This document shows, in pieces, positions 828 through 9,778 of a stretch of 10,681 nucleotides of DNA; the first letter of the stretch is position 1, and every line of letters starts with the position of its first letter. The notes beneath the pieces were generated by a model, which saw nothing but the letters and a program-made list of their open reading frames with translations, had not been told where the DNA came from and did no database searches. Origin of the DNA: a virus. Taxonomy: Duplodnaviria > Heunggongvirae > Uroviricota > Caudoviricetes. The DNA lies in IMG/VR virus record IMGVR_UViG_2713896775_000011, positions 1 through 10,681 of that record, one strand, 5' to 3'. Made by a program: the position numbers and the translations under genes.

Positions 828-1303
828 TTAACAGTTAATCCACCAGTATGTGCCGGGTGCCTGCGGGTAAGTGGCGGCGGCAACCTCGTGAACCATCCCC
901 CAATCCAGAGCTGTGGAGGCATTGGCTATGGTGGCGGCGGAGATAACCTCCTTCCACTCATTGCGGCTCTTACTGAGCTCAATCTGACTCTCCAAAATAT
1001 CGACAAAACGCTCCAGGTCATTATTGAGACACGCGCTCCACTCACTGACGCGTGAGTGATCCACGCTTGGGCCCATCAAGCCCCAGTGAAAAGGATGCAG
1101 TAAGAACCGACTCCCAGGATTCGCCTTACGTTCAGACCCTGCAAGAAAAATGATATTAGCGACTGATTCAACATTGCTAAGGTTATGGGTCTTTACTGGG
1201 ATTGGTAGGGCCTTTAGAAAGTGATAAGCAGTAAAACCTGCAACGAGGTCACCGCCCGGACTGGAAATGTAAATGTTTAACTCAGTCGCCCCCTGATTGA
1301 TAG
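828..1303 (-). pseudogene. ClpP-fold (Clp protease-like) serine peptidase, 5'-truncated fragment
   Basis: The minus-strand ORF contains NIYISSPGGDLVAGFTAYHF...VESVANIIFLAGSERKANPGSRFLLHPF...ALDWGMVHEV, which aligns with the ClpP core (YINSPGG...AG...Y...GQAASMGAFLLTAG...SRVMIHQP...EYGLVD), including the Ser and His positions. Only about 25 residues precede the SPGG motif, against roughly 90 in ClpP. The only in-frame start is a GTG at 1358 with no SD, lying inside the invertase remnant. Confidence 0.55.
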
Positions 1304-1543
1304 CTCCGAGAACTGATTGTTGAACGAACAAAAGCTGGCCTGGAAGCTGCTCGCGCACAGGGACGAATTGGTGGACGACGTCCCAAACTTACACCAGAAC
1401 AATGGGCGCAGACGGGTAGGTTAATAGCGGCAGGGGAATCGCGCCGGAGGGTTGCCATAATTTATGATGTTGGGATATCTACGCTTTACAAAAAATTCCC
1501 AGCGACCAGAGATAAGAATTCCGGCACGCATGGCCGGTTATAA
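1304..1543 (+). pseudogene. Serine-recombinase DNA invertase (Pin/Gin/Hin family), C-terminal remnant only; catalytic domain absent
   Basis: Frame 2 from 1304 (directly after TAG 1301-1303) to TAA 1541-1543 reads LRELIVERTKAGLEAARAQGRIGGRRPKLTPEQWAQTGRLIAAGESRRRVAIIYDVGISTLYKKFPATRDKNSGTHGRL. This closely matches the C-terminal hinge and HTH domain of Gin/Pin as I remember them. There is no start codon, and no frame upstream carries the N-terminal catalytic domain. Confidence 0.85.
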
Positions 1544-1628
1544 CCGTGCTGGCCGTGTGTATCGAGTACGGTCACTTTTAACGGTGCTGTAGCACGGTCA
1601 GTTATGGTGGTGTATTACGGAAGACGAA

Positions 1629-1650
1629 GCGGGCAATGGCCCGCTTTTCT
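1629..1650 (+). terminator. Rho-independent terminator-like hairpin (gcgggc-aatg-gcccgc followed by TTTTCTT)
   Basis: Perfect 6-bp GC-rich stem at 1629-1634 / 1639-1644 followed by a T-tract on the + strand. It lies just downstream of the invertase remnant and abuts the stop codon of U. Confidence 0.4.
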
Positions 1651-2099
1651 TATATCGAAAGGTTGGTTTTCACCAGAGAGAAGAGATCGTCGGTGGTGGT
1701 TTCAGCCAGCTTTTCCCGTATGTCCTCGCTTACCCGTTTCAGGTTGAGCGTGAAATCAATTTTCTTTGCCTTCCCGTCCTTAAAAAACTCCGTCCGGTTT
1801 TGCGTGATCTGCTCAATTACATACATGCCGTAGATCCTGCCCGTGCCTTCTATCAGGGGCCACGGGCGCCCGGAAAAAGCCATAGTTTCCAGCATGACAA
1901 GCGACACATCACCGCCGCTTATTTCGGGGTACAGCGTGCCGCTGAGTACGAACGGTTCTTCATCTGCGCCGATGAACTGATAGCGCGGGGATTTCCCCAC
2001 GCGATCGTTTTTGACGTGCCGCCAGGAGTTGGTTTTATTCGCACTCTGGTAAGGTGTGGTTTGCAGTGAAAAGGGGAACATCCCCAGAATCATCATCAT
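1650..2099 (-). CDS. U: Phage tail protein gpU (P2 U-like), 149 aa
   Basis: MMMILGMFPFSLQTTPYQ...SWRH...FIGADEEPFVLSGTLYPEISGG...RPWPLIEGTGRIYGMYVI resembles P2 gpU as recalled. It sits immediately downstream of the tape measure gene with a 9-nt gap and an AAGG SD. Confidence 0.85.
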   Translation of the reverse strand: MMMILGMFPFSLQTTPYQSANKTNSWRHVKNDRVGKSPRYQFIGADEEPFVLSGTLYPEISGGDVSLVMLETMAFSGRPWPLIEGTGRIYGMYVIEQITQNRTEFFKDGKAKKIDFTLNLKRVSEDIREKLAETTTDDLFSLVKTNLSI

Positions 2100-2108
2100 G
2101 ATATTGCC

Positions 2109-5054
2109 TTAGACGTGATCGGTCAGTTGGGAGCGCTTGCGCCGGTCGGCCTGTTGCTTCGCTAACGCAAGTTCTTCGCGCACGCGCCTGATAATGGTTT
2201 CTTCATCCAGTTTCTGGCCGCTAAAGTCGAAGTTAAGGTTATATACATCGCCACCCGGAGCAGGCATCAGCGCAGCGACGGAAGCCGCAGACGGAGACGC
2301 CGAAACAGGCATCCGTGCGGCGGGCTTCTCAACCTGCCAAGGCGTAACGGAAGCGATCAGCGATCCGGCCTGCTGCGTCACCCAATCCGTAAGGGATGGT
2401 AGCTGGCGCTGCGCCTGCTTAAGCGGTTCCGAATATCCGCCCCGGATCGGGATATAGGGCTGCTTATTCTTGAAGACGATTTCGCCGGGCCCGTCTTTCT
2501 TCTCCGTGGTATTGGTGGCGATCTTGTCCAGGCTGCTGCTCATCTTCGGCACGATGTTGGCCGGGCCCTTGAGCGAGTTAATTAAGCTTTCCTGCTTTTT
2601 CTGCTGGTCAATGGCCTGCTGTTGCTTCTGGTTGGTTTTCTTCTGCTGATCGTCTTTCGGCGACCAGTTCCAACCCTTTTTAACCATTTTCTTTTGCTGC
2701 GGATCCCACTCCCAGACAACAGGGTCTTTGTGCATACTTTCCGCAGCTTGCTGCGCTGCTTTTGTTGCGTCGGGGATGGCGCCGAGTTTCTCAAGTATCC
2801 ATCCAATCCCGTTAGCGACGGCTTGAATAGGTAGCGTCAGCGCGCTAATTGCGGCCCCTACAACCTTGCCGAACGTTTCCCCGGCACTGGTGCAGGATGC
2901 CAGCGCTTCACTGGAAAACTGGATCGGTTCCAGCAGTTTGGTAAACCATTCCCAGACCCCACTGATCGCGTTGCCGATACTGTCAAAAATCGGGGCCAGT
3001 GGTGCAAATACGGCGTTAAATGCCTGCGTGATTGGTTGAAGGCCAGTCATCAGGCCGGTAAAGAAGCCGCTGAAAAACGCCTGTATGGGTTGCCAGAATT
3101 TAATGACGGCCACTGCTGCCGCAGCAAAGAGCGCAATCAGCCCCCAGACGGGCGCAGAAATACCAGCCAGTAGAGTAATAAGCGGGCCGAATACCATGCG
3201 ACCGGCGCTTAATAATGCCTGCATAGGCGAGCCAGCAAGCCACTGGAACGCACCACCCAGGCGCATTACTCCGCCAGTCAGCCGCGCTATTCCTCCTTCC
3301 CCAGCCAGCGTGGTGAAGCTGAGGCGAACAAGTGCCATCGGGCCCAGCACTGCGCCGATGGACAGCATCAGGCCACCCACGACAACCAGCAACGCGCCTA
3401 TGGCTGCGGTGACTTTCATGATTGAACCAACCAGCGCCGGGTTTGCCTCAACCCAACGCCGGACGCTGCCAACCACCTTACTGACGGTAAGCATGATATC
3501 CATCAGCGGTTCGCGGAGCGTTTCCCCTGCTGAACTGAATGCGTTAACCGCGCCGGTTTTGGTCAGTTGCCACTGAGCAGAAAGGGAGGCTTTATTGATA
3601 TCGGATTCCCGATTCATGGAACCTTTAGCGGCAGCACCCTGCGTCAGTTCGATCTGGCGCCGAAGTTCGGGCAGGTTGTTCGCAAGTTTCTGTGCATCAT
3701 CCCCGAACTCTTTACCGAAAATCTGGGTAAGGTTGGCTACCTGCTTATCTGGTGCAAGTTTTTTGGACGCTTCCAGCACTGAAATGATCGTGCCCATCGC
3801 GTCCACTGACATGCTTTTCTGGACTTTCTCAGCATTGACGCCGATCTCATCCAGAGCACCCAAAAATTTATCGCTTTGTACTGTGGCGATCGACAGTTCA
3901 CGCACCATTGCATTGGTGGCGCTGGCTGCAACTTCGGCAGGTGATCCAAGCGTCAGAAAGGTGGAGCCCAGCGCGGCGGCTTGCTTGTAATCCAGTTGGC
4001 TGGCAAGCCCGCCAACGCGCTGGAGCACGTCGATAATATCGGAGCCTTTCGACTTCGCGTTATCGTCCAGGTAGTTTATGGCGTCGCCCAACTGTTCAAT
4101 ATTCTGGGTAGGGATTTTATACAGCCCGGCAATCTTACCGAGACTTTCAGAAAGCTGATCGGCGGGCAGTTCAAAGGCTACCGAAGCCTTTGCCGCCATG
4201 CTGGCAAAAGCCAGCAGATCGGCTTTTTGCTTTTGCCACGGATCATTGCTGTTTGCGACGCCCATACGCGCGCCACCTTCGACCAGTGCGGCATAGTCAA
4301 CAGCACCGTTTGCCATTGGCAGCTTTTCGCTGGCATCCATGATCGCCCGCTGCATTTCTTCATATTGCGGGGTGCGGTTGCCGCTGTCGTCACGCAAGCC
4401 GTTTACCTGTTTGGCTACGCCCTTCATTGCGTCTTCAAGGCTGCTGTAGGATTTAACCGCAGCGGCGACAGGTGCTAGGGTTGCCGCCCCTACTGCGGCG
4501 GTTTTCATCCCCCCGCTCATCATCTTTTCGCCGGTTTCTTTGGCGCGGCTGTAACGGGCCTGCGCCTGGTTAACAGCGTCAAGCCGTCGCTGCTGTTCGG
4601 CAAGCTGGCGGTTGTATTGCGCGGTGCGCTGGTTGATCTGTTCCGTCGCCCGGCTGGCGCTGCTGATCGCAATGCCTTCGCTGTAGAAGCTGGCCCGCAA
4701 CTGGTTAAGCTGCGTCTGCTCGCCTTTCTGCTGCTGGGTTAACTGGCGAATGGCTGCACGTTGCTGATTGAGGGCGGCAACCTGTTCGGCGCTGCGCTGG
4801 CGTAACGGGCCATAGGCCGCCGCCATTTGCCGGGCCTGTTCTTTCGCCTGGGCCAGTTGTTCGGTGGTTTTTTTATTGGCTGCGGTGAGGCGGTCAAAGC
4901 TGGTTGCCTGACGCTCAAGCCCTTTAATGCTGGTTTTAGTCTGGTTGATTTGAGACGCCAACGCGGCGGCACTCTGGCGCGCCGCGTTGACAGGGCGGGA
5001 CATATTATTCAGGGCGCTGAATGCCACCCTGATATTTAAATTGCGGTCTGCCAT
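2109..5054 (-). CDS. T: Tail tape measure protein (P2 gpT-like), 981 aa
   Basis: Long ORF in the T position between E/E' and U. It has a coiled-coil, Q/A-rich N-terminus, a central hydrophobic helix-rich segment and a K/Q-rich C-terminal part. ATG at 5052-5054 is immediately preceded by the E' stop; a GGAG-type SD lies upstream. Confidence 0.9.
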   Translation of the reverse strand: MADRNLNIRVAFSALNNMSRPVNAARQSAAALASQINQTKTSIKGLERQATSFDRLTAANKKTTEQLAQAKEQARQMAAAYGPLRQRSAEQVAALNQQRAAIRQLTQQQKGEQTQLNQLRASFYSEGIAISSASRATEQINQRTAQYNRQLAEQQRRLDAVNQAQARYSRAKETGEKMMSGGMKTAAVGAATLAPVAAAVKSYSSLEDAMKGVAKQVNGLRDDSGNRTPQYEEMQRAIMDASEKLPMANGAVDYAALVEGGARMGVANSNDPWQKQKADLLAFASMAAKASVAFELPADQLSESLGKIAGLYKIPTQNIEQLGDAINYLDDNAKSKGSDIIDVLQRVGGLASQLDYKQAAALGSTFLTLGSPAEVAASATNAMVRELSIATVQSDKFLGALDEIGVNAEKVQKSMSVDAMGTIISVLEASKKLAPDKQVANLTQIFGKEFGDDAQKLANNLPELRRQIELTQGAAAKGSMNRESDINKASLSAQWQLTKTGAVNAFSSAGETLREPLMDIMLTVSKVVGSVRRWVEANPALVGSIMKVTAAIGALLVVVGGLMLSIGAVLGPMALVRLSFTTLAGEGGIARLTGGVMRLGGAFQWLAGSPMQALLSAGRMVFGPLITLLAGISAPVWGLIALFAAAAVAVIKFWQPIQAFFSGFFTGLMTGLQPITQAFNAVFAPLAPIFDSIGNAISGVWEWFTKLLEPIQFSSEALASCTSAGETFGKVVGAAISALTLPIQAVANGIGWILEKLGAIPDATKAAQQAAESMHKDPVVWEWDPQQKKMVKKGWNWSPKDDQQKKTNQKQQQAIDQQKKQESLINSLKGPANIVPKMSSSLDKIATNTTEKKDGPGEIVFKNKQPYIPIRGGYSEPLKQAQRQLPSLTDWVTQQAGSLIASVTPWQVEKPAARMPVSASPSAASVAALMPAPGGDVYNLNFDFSGQKLDEETIIRRVREELALAKQQADRRKRSQLTDHV

Positions 5055-5515
5055 TTAGTGATCTCCACCACTGCGCGCAGCCGCCTGATCACGCCATAAC
5101 AGTATTTCCTGTACCGTCATGGCGTCCATCTCTACCGGCCGCCAGTGGAATATGACGGCGATATCTGCCATCAGGTCTTCTATGCGTTCGCAGGGGCATC
5201 GGATGATTCGTTGCCCGTATCCGTCGCGGTCAGATCCGAAGAGGGTTGCAAAAAATCAACCACCGCGTTGGCTAGCTGGCAAAAATCCCAGGTATCCATA
5301 CGGGCAATCTCATCGGCGGTTAGTGCCGGAGCGGTAACGCGGGGCAGCAGAATAACCAGCGCGTCATAGTTGGAAGTCAGCACGTCATAGGCTTTTAAGC
5401 CGCGCAGTGATCCAGCCTGTTTAAGCACGGAAGTGATCGCCACTTCGGTGATTTTGGTCTTACCGCGCGTAATAGGGGCGGTAAGAATAACGGTGTTTTC
5501 TTTGGTCTTGCTCAT
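5055..5515 (-). CDS. E': gpE+E' fusion product made by programmed -1 ribosomal frameshift (about 152 aa)
   Basis: The slippery heptamer TTTTTTG lies on the minus strand at + coordinates 5249-5255, inside E codons 88-89. The -1 frame from 5249 stays open for 64 codons (ATLFGSDRDGYGQRIIRCPCERIEDLMADIAVIFHWRPVEMDAMTVQEILLWRDQAAARSGGDH) and stops at TAA 5055-5057, directly abutting the T start codon. Confidence 0.7.
5180..5515 (-). CDS. E: Tail assembly chaperone gpE (P2 E-like), 110 aa
   Basis: MSKTKENTVILTAPITRGKTKITEVAIT...LRGL...ALVILLPRVTAPALTADE resembles P2 gpE. AGGAAA SD upstream; stop TAG at 5180-5182. Confidence 0.85.
   Translation of the reverse strand: MSKTKENTVILTAPITRGKTKITEVAITSVLKQAGSLRGLKAYDVLTSNYDALVILLPRVTAPALTADEIARMDTWDFCQLANAVVDFLQPSSDLTATDTGNESSDAPANA
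5249..5255 (-). promoter_or_regulatory. -1 programmed frameshift slippery site (TTTTTTG) for E/E'
   Basis: Heptamer read directly on the minus strand within E; its position near the E 3' end and the open -1 frame match the P2 E/E' and lambda G/GT paradigm. Confidence 0.65.
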
Positions 5516-5529
5516 GGTGCCGGGTTTCC

Positions 5530-6045
5530 TTATAGGCCGATGTTAGCGCGGTGTTTTTCCAGCACATCCACACCGGCAACTTTGTAGATCATGTTGAGCA
5601 CATCAACTTCGATAATCTCTTCGCCGTTGATGGTCAGCTTGTAATAGGTGTTTTTCAGGGTGTACTTATGCGAAGTGTCATCCCCGACTTTTGCCGAACC
5701 GGGATCCAGTTCAGTGAAGCGGCCACGCGTCTGGATTTCGCACGGTACAGCGTCGCCGGTTGCGTCGTCCTGATAGGAGCCAGCAAAACGTGTTTGCATC
5801 CCGTCCGCAGTGGTAACGCCCCATTTTTTCAGCAATCCGGCATCCAGACCGCCAAGCGTGATATCCATATCCAGGGCGCCAGCGTCGAAGCCAAGATCCA
5901 CCGCAACCGAACCCGGCATACCACCCGCCTGGTAGTCTTCGGTTTTTTTTGTGAGTTTGGCGGGGGTGATTTCCGGCACCATGCCGAAGTAGTTATCCCC
6001 GTCAAAGAACATATTGAAATATTTGAGTTTCTTAGGCAGTGCCAT
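5530..6045 (-). CDS. FII: Tail tube protein (P2 gpFII-like), 171 aa
   Basis: MALPKKLKYFNMFFDGDNYFGMVPEITPAKLTKK...RFAGSYQDD...LEKHRANIGL resembles P2 FII, including the ...HR.NIGL C-terminus. It lies 12 nt downstream of FI. Confidence 0.9.
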   Translation of the reverse strand: MALPKKLKYFNMFFDGDNYFGMVPEITPAKLTKKTEDYQAGGMPGSVAVDLGFDAGALDMDITLGGLDAGLLKKWGVTTADGMQTRFAGSYQDDATGDAVPCEIQTRGRFTELDPGSAKVGDDTSHKYTLKNTYYKLTINGEEIIEVDVLNMIYKVAGVDVLEKHRANIGL

Positions 6046-6057
6046 AAGCGCCCCCGG

Positions 6058-7251
6058 TTAGTTATTCACTGCGCTGGAAAACGTAGCGAAATATTCGTCG
6101 GTGAACTCCTGTACCAGGCTGAGATTTTCCAGCGGTGGAACAGGGGTGTAGTTGTACTTAATGGTCAGTTGACCATTGCGCAGGGTTTCCGAGGTATTCG
6201 GTTCCGGGTCATACCAGCAGCGGGCGCCCAGCAGCTTGCCAGCCGTCACATATGAGGTCAGCTTCTTATTGATGCCGTCCACAATGTCCTTAACCAGCGA
6301 CGGGGTAAGCGGTTTATCAACATAGGCGAAATGGGCTTCGGCGACGGTATCCGCAACGATCTGCGCGGTTCGGGTATAGCTTTCGAAGATATACGTTTCC
6401 GCGTCGCAGGTACGCGATCCCCAGATGCGGTAGCCGTCCTGCTTGATCAGCGTGGTAACGCCTGCTGCGTTCAGTTCGTCGGCGTCGGTATCGGTGCCCT
6501 GCAACGTGAAATAGATATCCCGATCCATCCCCAGCACGTTATTAACGGGCACGTTGGAAATGGTTTTATGCCAGCCCTGCGTTGCGTCGATTTTGGCGCG
6601 CATCCCAACAGCATGGGCACCCACGGGCACGGTGGCATTGGCCCCGGCGTTGGTGTCGTAGCAGATGAAATTAGGCCAGATAACCATCATTTCACGCTGG
6701 GAGAACTGTTCGCGGTATTCCTTCACTTCGGCGATTGTGTTGCAGCCGTTCGCAGCCACGTAAGCAAATGCGCGCAGCTTTTCGGCAATGACGCCGAGTT
6801 GTGCGGCTACCGCTTCCGTATCAAGCCCAGGAACAGCCAGTACACGCGGGCGCACGCCTACGCGCATTTCGGCAGACAGCAGCGCGTACATGCCGGTAAA
6901 GCGCCCGTTTGCATCGGTGCCGCCAATAACCAGTTGATCCTGTGTCTGTGCGGTACCGCCTTCTGGTGGAACAATTTTTGACGCATCGGCAACGCGGATC
7001 ACAATGGTTTGCGGGCTGGTCTGGTCTGAAATCGCTTTCAGGGTGGTAAACAGGGTGCCGGTTTTACCTGCCTTGCCCAGCATGTTAGCCACGCGGGTGA
7101 TCAGTACAGGGGTATCCAGCGGGAACGCTGTTTCGTCCGCATCATCAGCGGTGCAGACAACGCCGATCACCGCCGAATCAATGTCGGTGATCATCGTGCT
7201 AAGGTCGGTGGTTTCCGTGACGGTTACACCGTGATGGTAGTTAGTGGCCAT
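6058..7251 (-). CDS. FI: Contractile tail sheath protein (P2 gpFI-like), 397 aa
   Basis: MATNYHHGVTV...VIGVVCTADDAD...VPGLDTEAVAAQL...KLRAFAYVA...WHKT.SNV...YTPVPPLENL matches P2 FI (MSDYHHGVQV...) along its length as recalled. GAGG SD upstream of ATG 7249-7251. Confidence 0.9.
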   Translation of the reverse strand: MATNYHHGVTVTETTDLSTMITDIDSAVIGVVCTADDADETAFPLDTPVLITRVANMLGKAGKTGTLFTTLKAISDQTSPQTIVIRVADASKIVPPEGGTAQTQDQLVIGGTDANGRFTGMYALLSAEMRVGVRPRVLAVPGLDTEAVAAQLGVIAEKLRAFAYVAANGCNTIAEVKEYREQFSQREMMVIWPNFICYDTNAGANATVPVGAHAVGMRAKIDATQGWHKTISNVPVNNVLGMDRDIYFTLQGTDTDADELNAAGVTTLIKQDGYRIWGSRTCDAETYIFESYTRTAQIVADTVAEAHFAYVDKPLTPSLVKDIVDGINKKLTSYVTAGKLLGARCWYDPEPNTSETLRNGQLTIKYNYTPVPPLENLSLVQEFTDEYFATFSSAVNN

Positions 7252-7323
7252 GTATTTGCCTCGCCAGTTTAATGACTGCGAATATCATTGCGGCAATGGC
7301 AGGCCGATGCGATGAATAAGGGT

Positions 7324-7341
7324 TGTCAGCAACCTGCAACA
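7324..7341. promoter_or_regulatory. Ogr-type late-promoter activator site: dyad TGT-N12-ACA
   Basis: tgt(7324-7326)-cagcaacctgca-aca(7339-7341) matches the TGT-N12-ACA element of P2 late promoters. Its centre lies 81 bp from the FI ATG and 76 bp from the D ATG, between the two divergent genes. Confidence 0.4.
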
Positions 7342-7408
7342 ATGACGGGGCGTTGTTCATGCGCGCGCGCGTGGCGACGATGTACCCCATCATGATGAAG
7401 GGGTTGAT

Positions 7409-8527
7409 ATGGACACGACAGAAAACCGATATTCGCCGCGCCCGGCGTTCAGTATTGAAATTGAAGGTAATCAGCTTACGGCGCTGGATAACCGGCTGAT
7501 CTCCCTTTCCCTGACAGATAACCGGGGCTTTGAAGCGGACACGCTGGATCTGACTCTGGATGATGTAGACGGGCAGGTAGCATTACCATCACGCGGCGCA
7601 AAGATATCGGTGGCGCTGGGCTGGGATAATGATCCATTGGTTTTTAAGGGCGTCTATACGGTTGACGAGATCGGACACGCCGGCCCGCCTGACCAGCTAA
7701 CGATCAGTGCCAGAAGTGCAGATTTCCGCGATACCTTCAACGTGAAGAGGGAATATAGCTGGCACGATATTACCGTGGGGGATGTGGTCGCCAGCATTGC
7801 CAGCCGCTACGATCTGCGTGCGGGTGTCAGCGAAGAACTGGCGAAGATTGAGATAGACCACGCCGATCAGACGAGTGAATCAGATATCAGCTTCTTAACG
7901 CGCATGGCCGAAATGCTGGGCGCGGTGGCAACCATTAAAAACGGTATGCTTCTGTTTATCACGCCGGGCAAGGGAGTGACGCAAAGCGGCAAGCCGTTGC
8001 CGGTGATCGAGATCGTCAGGTCAAGCGGTGATAAACATCGGTTTAACGTAGCTGACCGCGACGCGTACACGGGCGTAACTGCATACTGGCTTGATCTCAA
8101 CTTTGGCAAAAAACCATCCACTACCGTGAAGAAAACCACCCGCAGACGACGAACCAGCCAGGCCAAAAAGAAAGAGCCCGCATCAAGCAAAAAAGAGGGT
8201 GATTATCTGGCCGGGGCCGAAGGTAACGTTTTTGTTATCCGTAAAACCTTCAAGACGGAAAAGGCGGCGAAGCGGGCCGCTGCGGCTAAGTGGCGGGAGT
8301 TGCAGCGTGGAGCGGCGACGTTCAGCATCACCCTGGCGCGTGGCCGCGCGGATTTGTACCCGGAACAGCCTGCCAGCGTCTACGGCTTTAAGTCCACGAT
8401 CGACAGTGGGAACTGGACGATAACGCGGTGCGTTCACGATATTGGCGGGGGAGGGTTTACCACATCGCTGGAACTGGAAGTAAAAATCGACGACTGGACA
8501 GCGGAGAGTGACGATTCAACGTCTTAA
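7409..8527 (+). CDS. D: Phage tail/late protein gpD (P2 D-like), 372 aa
   Basis: MDTTENRYSPRPAFSIEIEGNQLTALDNRLISLSLTDNRGFEADTLDLTLDD... is characteristic of the P2 gpD family. AAGGGG SD 5 nt upstream of the ATG. Confidence 0.9.
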   Translation: MDTTENRYSPRPAFSIEIEGNQLTALDNRLISLSLTDNRGFEADTLDLTLDDVDGQVALPSRGAKISVALGWDNDPLVFKGVYTVDEIGHAGPPDQLTISARSADFRDTFNVKREYSWHDITVGDVVASIASRYDLRAGVSEELAKIEIDHADQTSESDISFLTRMAEMLGAVATIKNGMLLFITPGKGVTQSGKPLPVIEIVRSSGDKHRFNVADRDAYTGVTAYWLDLNFGKKPSTTVKKTTRRRRTSQAKKKEPASSKKEGDYLAGAEGNVFVIRKTFKTEKAAKRAAAAKWRELQRGAATFSITLARGRADLYPEQPASVYGFKSTIDSGNWTITRCVHDIGGGGFTTSLELEVKIDDWTAESDDSTS

Positions 8528-8575
8528 GCGTTATACTTGCGTTGATATTAACCAGTCCTGAAAGGAGGCCCGCGT

Positions 8576-8818
8576 ATGGCAATGCGCTGTCCTCGCTGCC
8601 GTGCAATAGCAAAAACCAGAACCAGCGTTGAGCTGAGTTTGCTTGTACGGCGCAGCTATCACCAGTGTCAAAATATGTTGTGCGGGTACTGTTTCACCAG
8701 CATGACGGAAATAGACGGTTCACTAAATCAGACCCAGCCAGCGCCCGGCGCGATGGTGCCACAAGAAGCTTTTCCACGAAGTCACCACGGCGAAGATCAG
8801 TTATCGCTGGCATTATAA
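8576..8818 (+). CDS. ogr: Ogr/Delta-family zinc-finger late-gene transcriptional activator, 80 aa
   Basis: MAMRCPRCRAIAKTRTSVELSLLVRRSYHQCQNMLCGYCF has the Cys-x2-Cys...Cys-x4-Cys Ogr signature and resembles P2 Ogr (MFHCPLC...RYHQCQN.NC). Strong AAAGGAGG SD 7 nt upstream. Confidence 0.85.
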   Translation: MAMRCPRCRAIAKTRTSVELSLLVRRSYHQCQNMLCGYCFTSMTEIDGSLNQTQPAPGAMVPQEAFPRSHHGEDQLSLAL

Positions 8819-8820
8819 AA

Positions 8821-8850
8821 GCGGCCCCTAAATGGGGCCGTTATTTATTT
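8821..8850. terminator. Bidirectional rho-independent terminator shared by ogr (+) and the convergent membrane-protein gene (-)
   Basis: gcggcccc-taaa-tggggccg hairpin followed by TTATTTATTT on the + strand and by CTTTTA on the minus strand. The minus gene's stop codon (8845-8847) lies inside the T-tract. Confidence 0.6.
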
Positions 8851-9492
8851 CATGTTTATGGCTACAAACCTTGATCGTGTAAGGTTTTCACTTAAATATT
8901 GATCGCCACTATCCCCGGCCTTTTTGCCCCAGATATCACACGAAGATTCACCGCCCTGAAAAACGTAGCCTTTGGTTAAAATGTCGTTAGTCACATAAAT
9001 ATGATCGAATAAACCAGCCTTCCAAGCCCTGTTAGATTCCCCGTGATTGAAATAGCTGATGCATACGGACTGAACGGCACTTTTCGCCTGTAGTTCTTCT
9101 ATGCTGTCAAAATTGAATGCAACTACTAAGGCTTTGTTGTAAATGACTGGTTTAACTGTGAGATTCAGATCTCCGAGCGCCTTGGATAAGGCAAGGGGAA
9201 GTTGATTAGTCGCTTCTGAAAAGTCGATAGTGGTTGTTAATTGTTCTTTGGGTTTAGCCGCGGGTTGTGTTTGTTCTGTGTTTGTCACTGCTGGCTGGGG
9301 TTTATTTTCAGCAACAGCTTTCGGCGCGACTGGTGCAACCATTGAACCTATGATTGCTGCCAAGAGGCACACCCCGAAGTAGATAGCAGATGAGCGCTTT
9401 CGATTTGGCATAAAAACCCATTTGGGATTGATTAGCCCAACCCAAAAAGCGATCCCAGCAACAGCGGCGATAACGGTGATGATTGTTTCCAT
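8845..9492 (-). CDS. Hypothetical membrane-anchored protein, 215 aa (two predicted N-terminal TM helices, Pro/Gln-rich linker, globular C-terminal domain)
   Basis: ATG at 9490-9492 with a GGAGGG SD 7 nt upstream. Hydrophobic segments IITVIAAVAGIAFWVGLI and AIYFGVCLLAAIIGSMVAPVA. The DNA looks clearly AT-richer than the flanking tail genes and fieF (by eye). No family recognised. Confidence 0.6.
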   Translation of the reverse strand: METIITVIAAVAGIAFWVGLINPKWVFMPNRKRSSAIYFGVCLLAAIIGSMVAPVAPKAVAENKPQPAVTNTEQTQPAAKPKEQLTTTIDFSEATNQLPLALSKALGDLNLTVKPVIYNKALVVAFNFDSIEELQAKSAVQSVCISYFNHGESNRAWKAGLFDHIYVTNDILTKGYVFQGGESSCDIWGKKAGDSGDQYLSENLTRSRFVAINMK

Positions 9493-9670
9493 TGAGTACC
9501 CTCCGTATTAAGGCGGGTATTATTGTCGATGGTGCTCAAAAACGGAACAGCCAAGCGCGGTGCGCCTGGCTGCTTCTTTGTCGAAGTGTAGTCAAAATGT
9601 AGACGAAGTTTAGAATAAATCCTTTTATTCCATTATGTTACTGGCTGGATTTCTTCACCATCCCTGTCTT

Positions 9671-9698
9671 CCCCCACATGATGTGGGGGTTTTTTTTA
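9671..9698 (+). terminator. Rho-independent terminator (cccccacat-g-atgtggggg followed by T9) with no + strand gene upstream in the window
   Basis: Perfect 9-bp inverted repeat followed by nine T residues on the + strand, about 80 bp upstream of fieF. Confidence 0.5.
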
Positions 9699-9778
9699 TC
9701 CTCAATTTGCCTGCTGCTTAATGCATTGCAGATGATTTGCTTCCGTTATACTAGCGTCAGTTGATAGCGGGAGTATTT

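Follow-up and report, generated by a model that had tools for sequence, protein, structure and literature searches.

The late promoters of phage P2 are the closest described systems for the locus reported here. Their activator, Ogr, is reported to bind inverted repeats that are centred near -55 and to act through the alpha subunit of RNA polymerase (PMC3152322). In the P2 record NC_001895 a single 'activator binding site; pO, pP promoters' is annotated at 3057-3087, together with mapped divergent starts at 3016 (minus strand, P operon) and 3127 (plus strand, O operon), which are 111 nt apart. The P|O dyad, TGTgtcagtgataagCCA, has its centre at 3071.5, and the -10 hexamers TAGCCT and GAAACT are located at 44-49 from this centre, one on each side. 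A start rule that places the first transcribed base at position 56 counted outward from the dyad centre (55.5 nt from the centre) gives both annotated P2 starts exactly. P2 itself is thus an established example of a dyad common to divergent late promoters, and the novelty implied by an earlier note on the present DNA was overstated, since P2 already has a shared dyad at P|O. In Smp131, a P2-like phage of Stenotrophomonas, the elements PP' and PO' are likewise listed as one 18-mer read on both strands (nt 4398-4381 and 4381-4398), and rearrangements of the tail genes go with re-assigned late promoters in this phage (PMC3931495).

The other P2 promoter that bears on this study is pF, which drives the operon FI-FII-E-E'-T-U-D in one direction only. 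In the literature searched, including papers on SEN4/5 and on the diversity of P2-like phages, we found no description of a promoter shared by FI and D or of an inversion at this place, nor did we find a note on an FI|D promoter in the phage records examined (SEN4/SEN5, P88, phiT5282H and KSP20).

Gene layout around the FI|D spacer

The sequence analysed in this study (the window, 10,681 bases) is a P2-family prophage. Its relevant genes, taken from the open reading frame list and a Pfam scan unless another source is given, are the following.

1650-2099, minus strand: U
2109-5054, minus strand: T
5180-5515, minus strand: E
5530-6045, minus strand: FII
6058-7251, minus strand: FI (tail sheath, by its sheath Pfam domains), first gene of the inverted FI-FII-E-T-U operon (1650-7251)
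7409-8527, plus strand: D (baseplate hub / late control D; Pfam Phage_GPD)
8576-8818, plus strand: ogr homologue of 80 aa, the presumed activator (Pfam Ogr_Delta, E 1.5e-13)
8820-8842, plus strand: terminator-like hairpin just 3' of ogr, the likely end of the D-ogr unit (terminator scan)
from 9761, plus strand: host-like cation-efflux (fieF-like) gene

A spacer of 157 nt (7252-7408) separates FI on the minus strand from D on the plus strand, and according to Pfam late (morphogenetic) genes lie on both of its flanks, FI being the sheath and D the baseplate hub. The whole FI-FII-E-T-U block is inverted relative to P2, and D-ogr keeps the P2 orientation. The statement of the earlier note that D, the last gene of the FI operon in P2, is here detached and divergent agrees both with the P2 reference record, where the F operon ends with D, and with the open reading frames of the window. 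An identical inverted layout is found in SEN5, Serratia phage KSP20, Escherichia phage P88 and Enterobacter phage phiT5282H. The FI|D region shows 97.8% identity with the Salmonella phages SEN4/SEN5 (Senquatrovirus) over a 901-base stretch spanning the spacer, and positions 1452-8820 of the window align with SEN5 at 92.9%. Like P2, the window phage encodes a presumed cognate zinc-finger activator of the Ogr family; its product scores 50.9 bits against Pfam Ogr_Delta (cut-off 26.3), and the zinc-finger cysteines CX2CX22CX4C can be read from its translation.

The dyad and the predicted promoter geometry of the spacer

The features identified in or beside the spacer are listed below; the starts are predictions from the P2 start rule.

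7276-7278, minus strand: predicted start of the FI operon, about 7277
7284-7289, minus strand: FI-side -10-like hexamer AATGAT, 2.9 bits, 44-49 nt from the dyad centre
7324-7341: Ogr-type dyad TGT-N12-ACA, TGTcagcaacctgcaACA, the proposed shared activator site, centre 7332.5
7353-7358, plus strand: D-side -35-like hexamer TTGTTC, positions 21-26 from the centre, with a 17-nt spacer to the -10
7361-7371, plus strand: alternating GCGCGCGCGCG tract in the D-promoter spacer, read from the sequence and present in the SEN5 P-side and V promoters too
7376-7381, plus strand: D-side -10-like hexamer GACGAT, 1.6 bits, 44-49 nt from the dyad centre
7387-7389, plus strand: predicted start of D, about 7388

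The dyad reads TGTCAGCAACCTGCAACA and, when its flanks are included, forms TTGT-N12-ACAA at 7323-7342, the same type as the P|O and V dyads of SEN5. It had been described in the earlier note as the only TGT-N12-ACA of the spacer and nearly equidistant from the ATG of FI (81) and that of D (76); our search of both strands confirms the first statement and extends it to the whole 10,681-base window, and the distances measured from the dyad centre are 81.5 nt to FI and 76.5 nt to D. As a count in the window this single dyad is unremarkable, with 2.02 occurrences expected by chance and at least one in 179 of 200 shuffles, although the same rate corresponds, by our own arithmetic, to only about 0.03 per 157-nt spacer. 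It is the conservation of its position, described in the next section, and not the window count, that makes the dyad stand above chance.

The -10-like hexamers on the two sides of the dyad keep the P2 distance, and the two predicted starts lie 111 nt apart, again as in P2. The predicted leader of FI is 26 nt long, with a Shine-Dalgarno sequence GAGG at 7259-7262, and that of D is 21 nt long, with AAGGGG at 7398-7403. Neither the FI-side predicted promoter, TCGCAT-17-AATGAT, nor the D-side one, TTGTTC-17-GACGAT (6 of 12 consensus matches), passes a 9-of-12 sigma-70 scan; a weak sigma-70 match is what is expected of activator-dependent promoters, and it is found on both sides. The two -10 scores of the window are weak in themselves, and we estimate that a few per cent of random sequence would reach them by chance at a fixed position. 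The D side closely resembles the P-side and V promoters of SEN5 in its order of elements, TTGT-N12-ACAA..GTTGTT..GCGCGCGCG..-10. The P|O spacer of SEN5, too, has just one dyad, flanked at 44-49 by TAGCCT on one side and by AATGAT on the other.

The locus therefore invites comparison with P2 pP/pO on several points. Both have one Ogr-type dyad between two divergent late operons, with -10 hexamers belonging to weak sigma-70 elements at 44-49 nt on both sides, and in both the dyad centre would be 55.5 nt from each start; these starts are experimentally mapped in P2 and predicted in the window. The genes served differ, being terminase/portal versus capsid, lysis and tail completion in P2 and the tail sheath operon versus D in the window, and the P2 P|O dyad is imperfect (TGT-N12-cCA) whereas that of the window is perfect. 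Smp131 resembles the window in that its divergent late promoters share a TGT-N12-ACA-like element, but it belongs to a phage of another host clade, its shared site is at P|O rather than FI|D, and its promoters were assigned by sequence inspection only.

On this basis we propose that the FI|D spacer contains back-to-back Ogr-dependent late promoters sharing one activator site, a reading to which we assign a probability of about 0.78. By extension from P2 biology, the Ogr homologue would bind the dyad, whose centre lies 55.5 nt upstream of both the leftward and the rightward predicted start, and the bound protein would recruit RNA polymerase via alpha to two weak sigma-70 promoters, marked by AATGAT and GACGAT in mirror image. 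The leftward transcript would then carry FI-FII-E-T-U and the rightward one D, probably running on into ogr. The suggestion of the earlier note that one symmetric site could serve both FI and D and so keep D late is supported by three independent comparisons, namely the P2 precedent, the geometry and the co-variation of half-sites within genomes. By analogy, the locus would represent a further case of the bidirectional Ogr-dependent late promoter already known at P2 pP/pO, and since P2 itself has the shared dyad there, the understanding of P2 late control is unchanged. What the locus may add is that a palindromic activator site would let a phage survive the inversion of an operon: after the FI-U flip the same dyad could serve the stranded D, and only a weak -10 at the mirror position would be needed.

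Other sequence features of the spacer were considered as well. The near-palindrome CATTGC-G-GCAATG, which the earlier note placed in the FI leader, is indeed present (7286-7291 / 7293-7298), but it is upstream of the FI start predicted at about 7277, overlapping the predicted FI -10 and spacer, and in the related loci compared it is not conserved beyond the closest relatives. We have rejected it as an operator or leader structure for these two reasons, and it is probably incidental. A terminator-like match at 7334-7321 consists only of the dyad arms, without a real T run.

Conservation in relatives and competing readings

A scan with the D protein, using one genome per species, returned 52 loci, and FI is divergent upstream of D in about 45 of them. 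These roughly 45 loci, with D identity down to about 60%, all come from Enterobacterales and represent Salmonella, Citrobacter, Hafnia, Enterobacter, Pectobacterium, Photorhabdus, Xenorhabdus, Yersinia, Providencia, Morganella, Brenneria, Serratia, Klebsiella, Erwinia, Pantoea and Edwardsiella. Essentially all of them have a dyad whose distance from the FI ATG is 78.5-87.5 nt. About half of the loci carry the form TGT-N12-ACA; the Erwinia/Pantoea/Enterobacter group has TCT-N12-ACA, and Providencia has TTCTC-N10-GAGAA. Among IMG/VR sequences FI and D are divergent in 80 of 80 loci, and in 77 of these the start codon of FI lies 80.5-85.5 nt from a perfect T[GC]T-N12-ACA. Across 122 related loci (31 sequence clusters, ranging from Salmonella to Xenorhabdus) the divergent arrangement of FI and D has no exception, and the dyad stays in position. 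There is one dyad per spacer, a few loci having overlapping duplicate matches, and outside the conserved columns the spacers of relatives are almost unalignable. SEN4/SEN5, P88 and phiT5282H (Senquatrovirus, Xuanwuvirus, Novemvirus) and KSP20 match the window in the inverted FI-U, the divergent D, the dyad and its geometry, with the difference that P88 and phiT5282H have TCT instead of TGT half-sites. If the proposal holds, the predicted starts near 7277 and 7388 would have counterparts across widespread Enterobacterales prophages of these three genera.

The type of half-site at FI|D is that found at P|O in the same genome. In SEN5, TTGT-N12-ACAA occurs at P|O, at V and at FI|D, and in phiT5282H and P88, TCT-N12-ACA occurs at both P|O and FI|D. 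Pairing of the IMG/VR D and P loci by contig gave three shared contigs only, two of them SEN5-like, and one contig, 2648501375_000008, has TGTCG..CGACA at both places. Nineteen non-redundant P|O spacers have one such dyad each, between P and O. Matching half-site types at FI|D and P|O are the pattern expected from a common activator site.

These data bear directly on the suspicion that the spacer dyad is a chance match or a relic on which neither promoter depends. Such a suspicion is reasonable from the window alone, where there is one match against 2.0 expected and where the half-sites are only 3 nt long. It is hard to reconcile, however, with a position kept in 122 loci whose surrounding spacers have almost fully diverged, with half-sites that track the P|O dyad of the same genome, or with a geometry identical to that of the mapped P2 promoters, and we regard it as highly improbable.

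The four Providencia loci are a separate observation. In them a different dyad, TTCTC-N10-GAGAA, occupies the usual position, at about 80 nt from the start codon of FI, and three of them have ogr 1.3 kb further away from D. This points to an activator whose specificity has changed.

An ungapped, dyad-anchored profile of 25 clusters was built from the related spacers. Apart from the dyad, its best-conserved columns include A, T and T at -49, -48 and -45 and A, A and T at +45, +48 and +49, which, read outward from the dyad on either side, are A2, A5 and T6 of a -10 hexamer; in 27 of 31 clusters both flanks have A45 together with T49. When a -10 weight matrix was slid over offsets 20-84 from the dyad centre on each side (122 loci, 31 clusters), its only peak was at 44-49 on both sides, at +1.1 and +2.0 bits against backgrounds of -7.6 and -6.6 (sd 1.7), with z about 5 each. 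On either side a hexamer resembling a -35 occupies positions 21-26, separated by 17 nt from the -10, and conserved -35-like positions are seen at 20-23 on both sides; on the D side TT at +21/+22 is among the best-conserved columns and TTGTnn is common there. In the same profile conservation is higher for the right half-site (GACAA) than for the left one, and the dyad may for this reason not be functionally symmetric.

We also noted that the alternating GCGCGCGCG tract fills the -35/-10 spacer in SEN5 at 3012-3022 (P-side) and 9299-9309 (V), that most relatives, including distant ones, have it, and that the FI-side and O-side promoters lack it. We dropped the idea of the FI|D cassette being a duplicate of P|O, as the GC tract pairs D with P and the asymmetry of the dyad (the GACAACAAAA side) pairs D with O.

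Conserved columns of this kind might instead reflect coding constraint, for the RefSeq record of SEN5 annotates an open reading frame here, SEN5_27, which in the window would encode a 50-aa protein (7241-7393, minus strand), and in 17 of 25 clusters the corresponding dyad-anchored frame is open over nearly the whole central 150 nt (at least 43 of about 49 codons). Translations of this type, however, have no conserved start or length, share only the residues that the dyad and the GC tract dictate, and in many cases are interrupted by stop codons. The start codon of SEN5_27 would also lie at 15 nt from that of D, too close for a promoter to fit between them. Because a conserved start, length and peptide are absent among relatives, we reject a small protein gene of the SEN5_27 type, and coding constraint is a most improbable source of the conserved features.

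A more serious competitor is that the dyad serves FI only, as the counterpart of P2 pF, and that an Ogr-independent sigma-70 promoter within the spacer transcribes D and, after it, ogr. The comparison with P2 pF, which the earlier note had recommended, stands in part: in both phages an Ogr-type dyad is found upstream of FI, at about -55 to -58, for a promoter that serves the tail sheath operon in P2 and would do so in the window, but pF is one-directional and ends with D, whereas in the window FI-to-U is inverted, D is outside the operon and a conserved promoter signal is present on the far side of the dyad. Two candidates can be named for an independent D promoter, TCGCCA-16-TATCAT on the plus strand (7261-7288, start about 7295) and TTGTTC-17-GACGAT acting without the activator. 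The former is a 9-of-12 match in the generic scan. In the relatives, moreover, the plus-strand (inward) hexamer of the FI side reaches 4.6 bits against 2.4 bits for the minus-strand one, and in the window the inward TATCAT (7283-7288), one base over, outscores the outward hexamer; on the D side, TTG is conserved at the -35 position.

The -10 consensus is nearly self-complementary, so that each conserved hexamer can be read inward too, one base over. The plus-strand hexamer, however, has no conserved -35 at 17 nt upstream (information content 0.1-0.5 at -75 to -66), whereas the outward hexamer has one, and a purely inward reading of the FI-side hexamer is also opposed by the fact that FI needs a promoter. 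The 6 promoter-like matches of the region come close to the number expected by chance (3.2 +/- 2.0), and for that reason the matches of the generic sigma-70 scan were rejected, with the plus-strand TATCAT kept as a minor rival. The D-side -10 lies at the exact mirror-image distance from the activator site in 27 of 31 clusters, for which an activator-independent promoter would have no reason. As a control, dyads that serve a single direction have no -10-like hexamer on their far side, with -10.7 bits at P2 pF and -10.4 bits at SEN5 pV. An Ogr-independent D promoter is unlikely in the light of these data, and two outward promoters around one shared dyad are the reading that we prefer.

The probable D-ogr unit, the late regulon and related records

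The proposed rightward promoter would have consequences for the activator gene itself. A terminator scan of the interval between D (8527) and ogr (8576) found no terminator-like site, and the hairpin of the unit lies beyond ogr, at 8820-8842; from these two results we infer that D transcripts probably continue into ogr. In P2, where the record names one terminator for the 'ogr transcript and F operon', late F-operon transcripts feed back positively on ogr, and read-through from D to ogr would do likewise in the window. A promoter-like sequence, GTGACG-18-TATACT, is also present at the end of D (8508-8537, plus strand), at the position that the ogr promoter has in P2, and ogr therefore probably has its own promoter as well.

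We also advance a more tentative idea, which we hold to be somewhat less likely than its opposite: that in this large lineage of P2-like phages the late regulon would have become compacted onto two or three Ogr dyads, two of them bidirectional, and that the inversion would have made D-ogr a short Ogr-activated operon with direct positive feedback. The genes S and V overlap in P88 (20208-20211) and in phiT5282H (28647-28650), which leaves no room for a V promoter, and in these two phages all late genes may be transcribed from two bidirectional dyads, P|O and FI|D. If the idea is true, the four late transcription units of P88 and phiT5282H, in which S and V are contiguous, would need no dyads other than P|O and FI|D, and the ogr feedback loop would be uncoupled from the 5.6-kb tail operon. 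Such a D-ogr loop might sharpen the late switch, or might let satellites or relatives trans-activate ogr.

The comparison also leads to corrections of several annotations in reference records. In the SEN5 record NC_028701.2, 'late control protein ogr' is annotated as a 40-aa open reading frame on the minus strand (22160-22279); the Ogr_Delta protein is encoded on the plus strand directly after D, and the ogr call of the record thus looks mis-stranded. In the same record the annotated ATG of O (scaffold) at 3092 falls inside the predicted O-side -10 (AATGAT, 3091-3096), and the P2-like N-terminus of O, MPMTNFFRVAVEGATCDGR, begins about 100 nt downstream of the annotated start, so that this start is probably too early. 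For the SEN5 terminase gene P, the P-side -10, TAGCCT, is identical to the P2 pP hexamer, and the predicted P-side start, 2992, coincides with the A of the annotated ATG; this would mean either that the mRNA has no leader or that the wrong start codon is annotated. The P2 record likewise puts the V start site on the V ATG.

Several further observations concern the remainder of the window, in which an Rfam scan over the full length matched no family. Positions 1-1451 have no similarity to SEN5, which has a tail-fibre assembly gene there, and this segment is probably a cargo slot that resembles the Z/fun position of P2. It contains a 176-aa ClpP-related open reading frame (828-1358, minus strand) that scores under all curated cut-offs, besides open reading frames without an assignment; in a search of the cargo open reading frames with PADLOC and NCBIfam this ClpP-like match was the sole result, PADLOC giving no matches. 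Another variable slot, 8821-9563, separates ogr from the end of the prophage; here a minus-strand open reading frame of 215 aa (8845-9492), in place of SEN5_30, has no Pfam, NCBIfam or PADLOC match. Positions 9564-9700 match SEN5 22796-22932, which adjoins int, and this places the attachment-site junction near 9700, just ahead of the fieF-like gene. Within E, the sequence TTTTTTG (5249-5255, minus strand) is presumably a -1 frameshift site of the P2 type, with E+E' as the expected product; in the SEN5 record the E' part is annotated as a separate 39-aa open reading frame.
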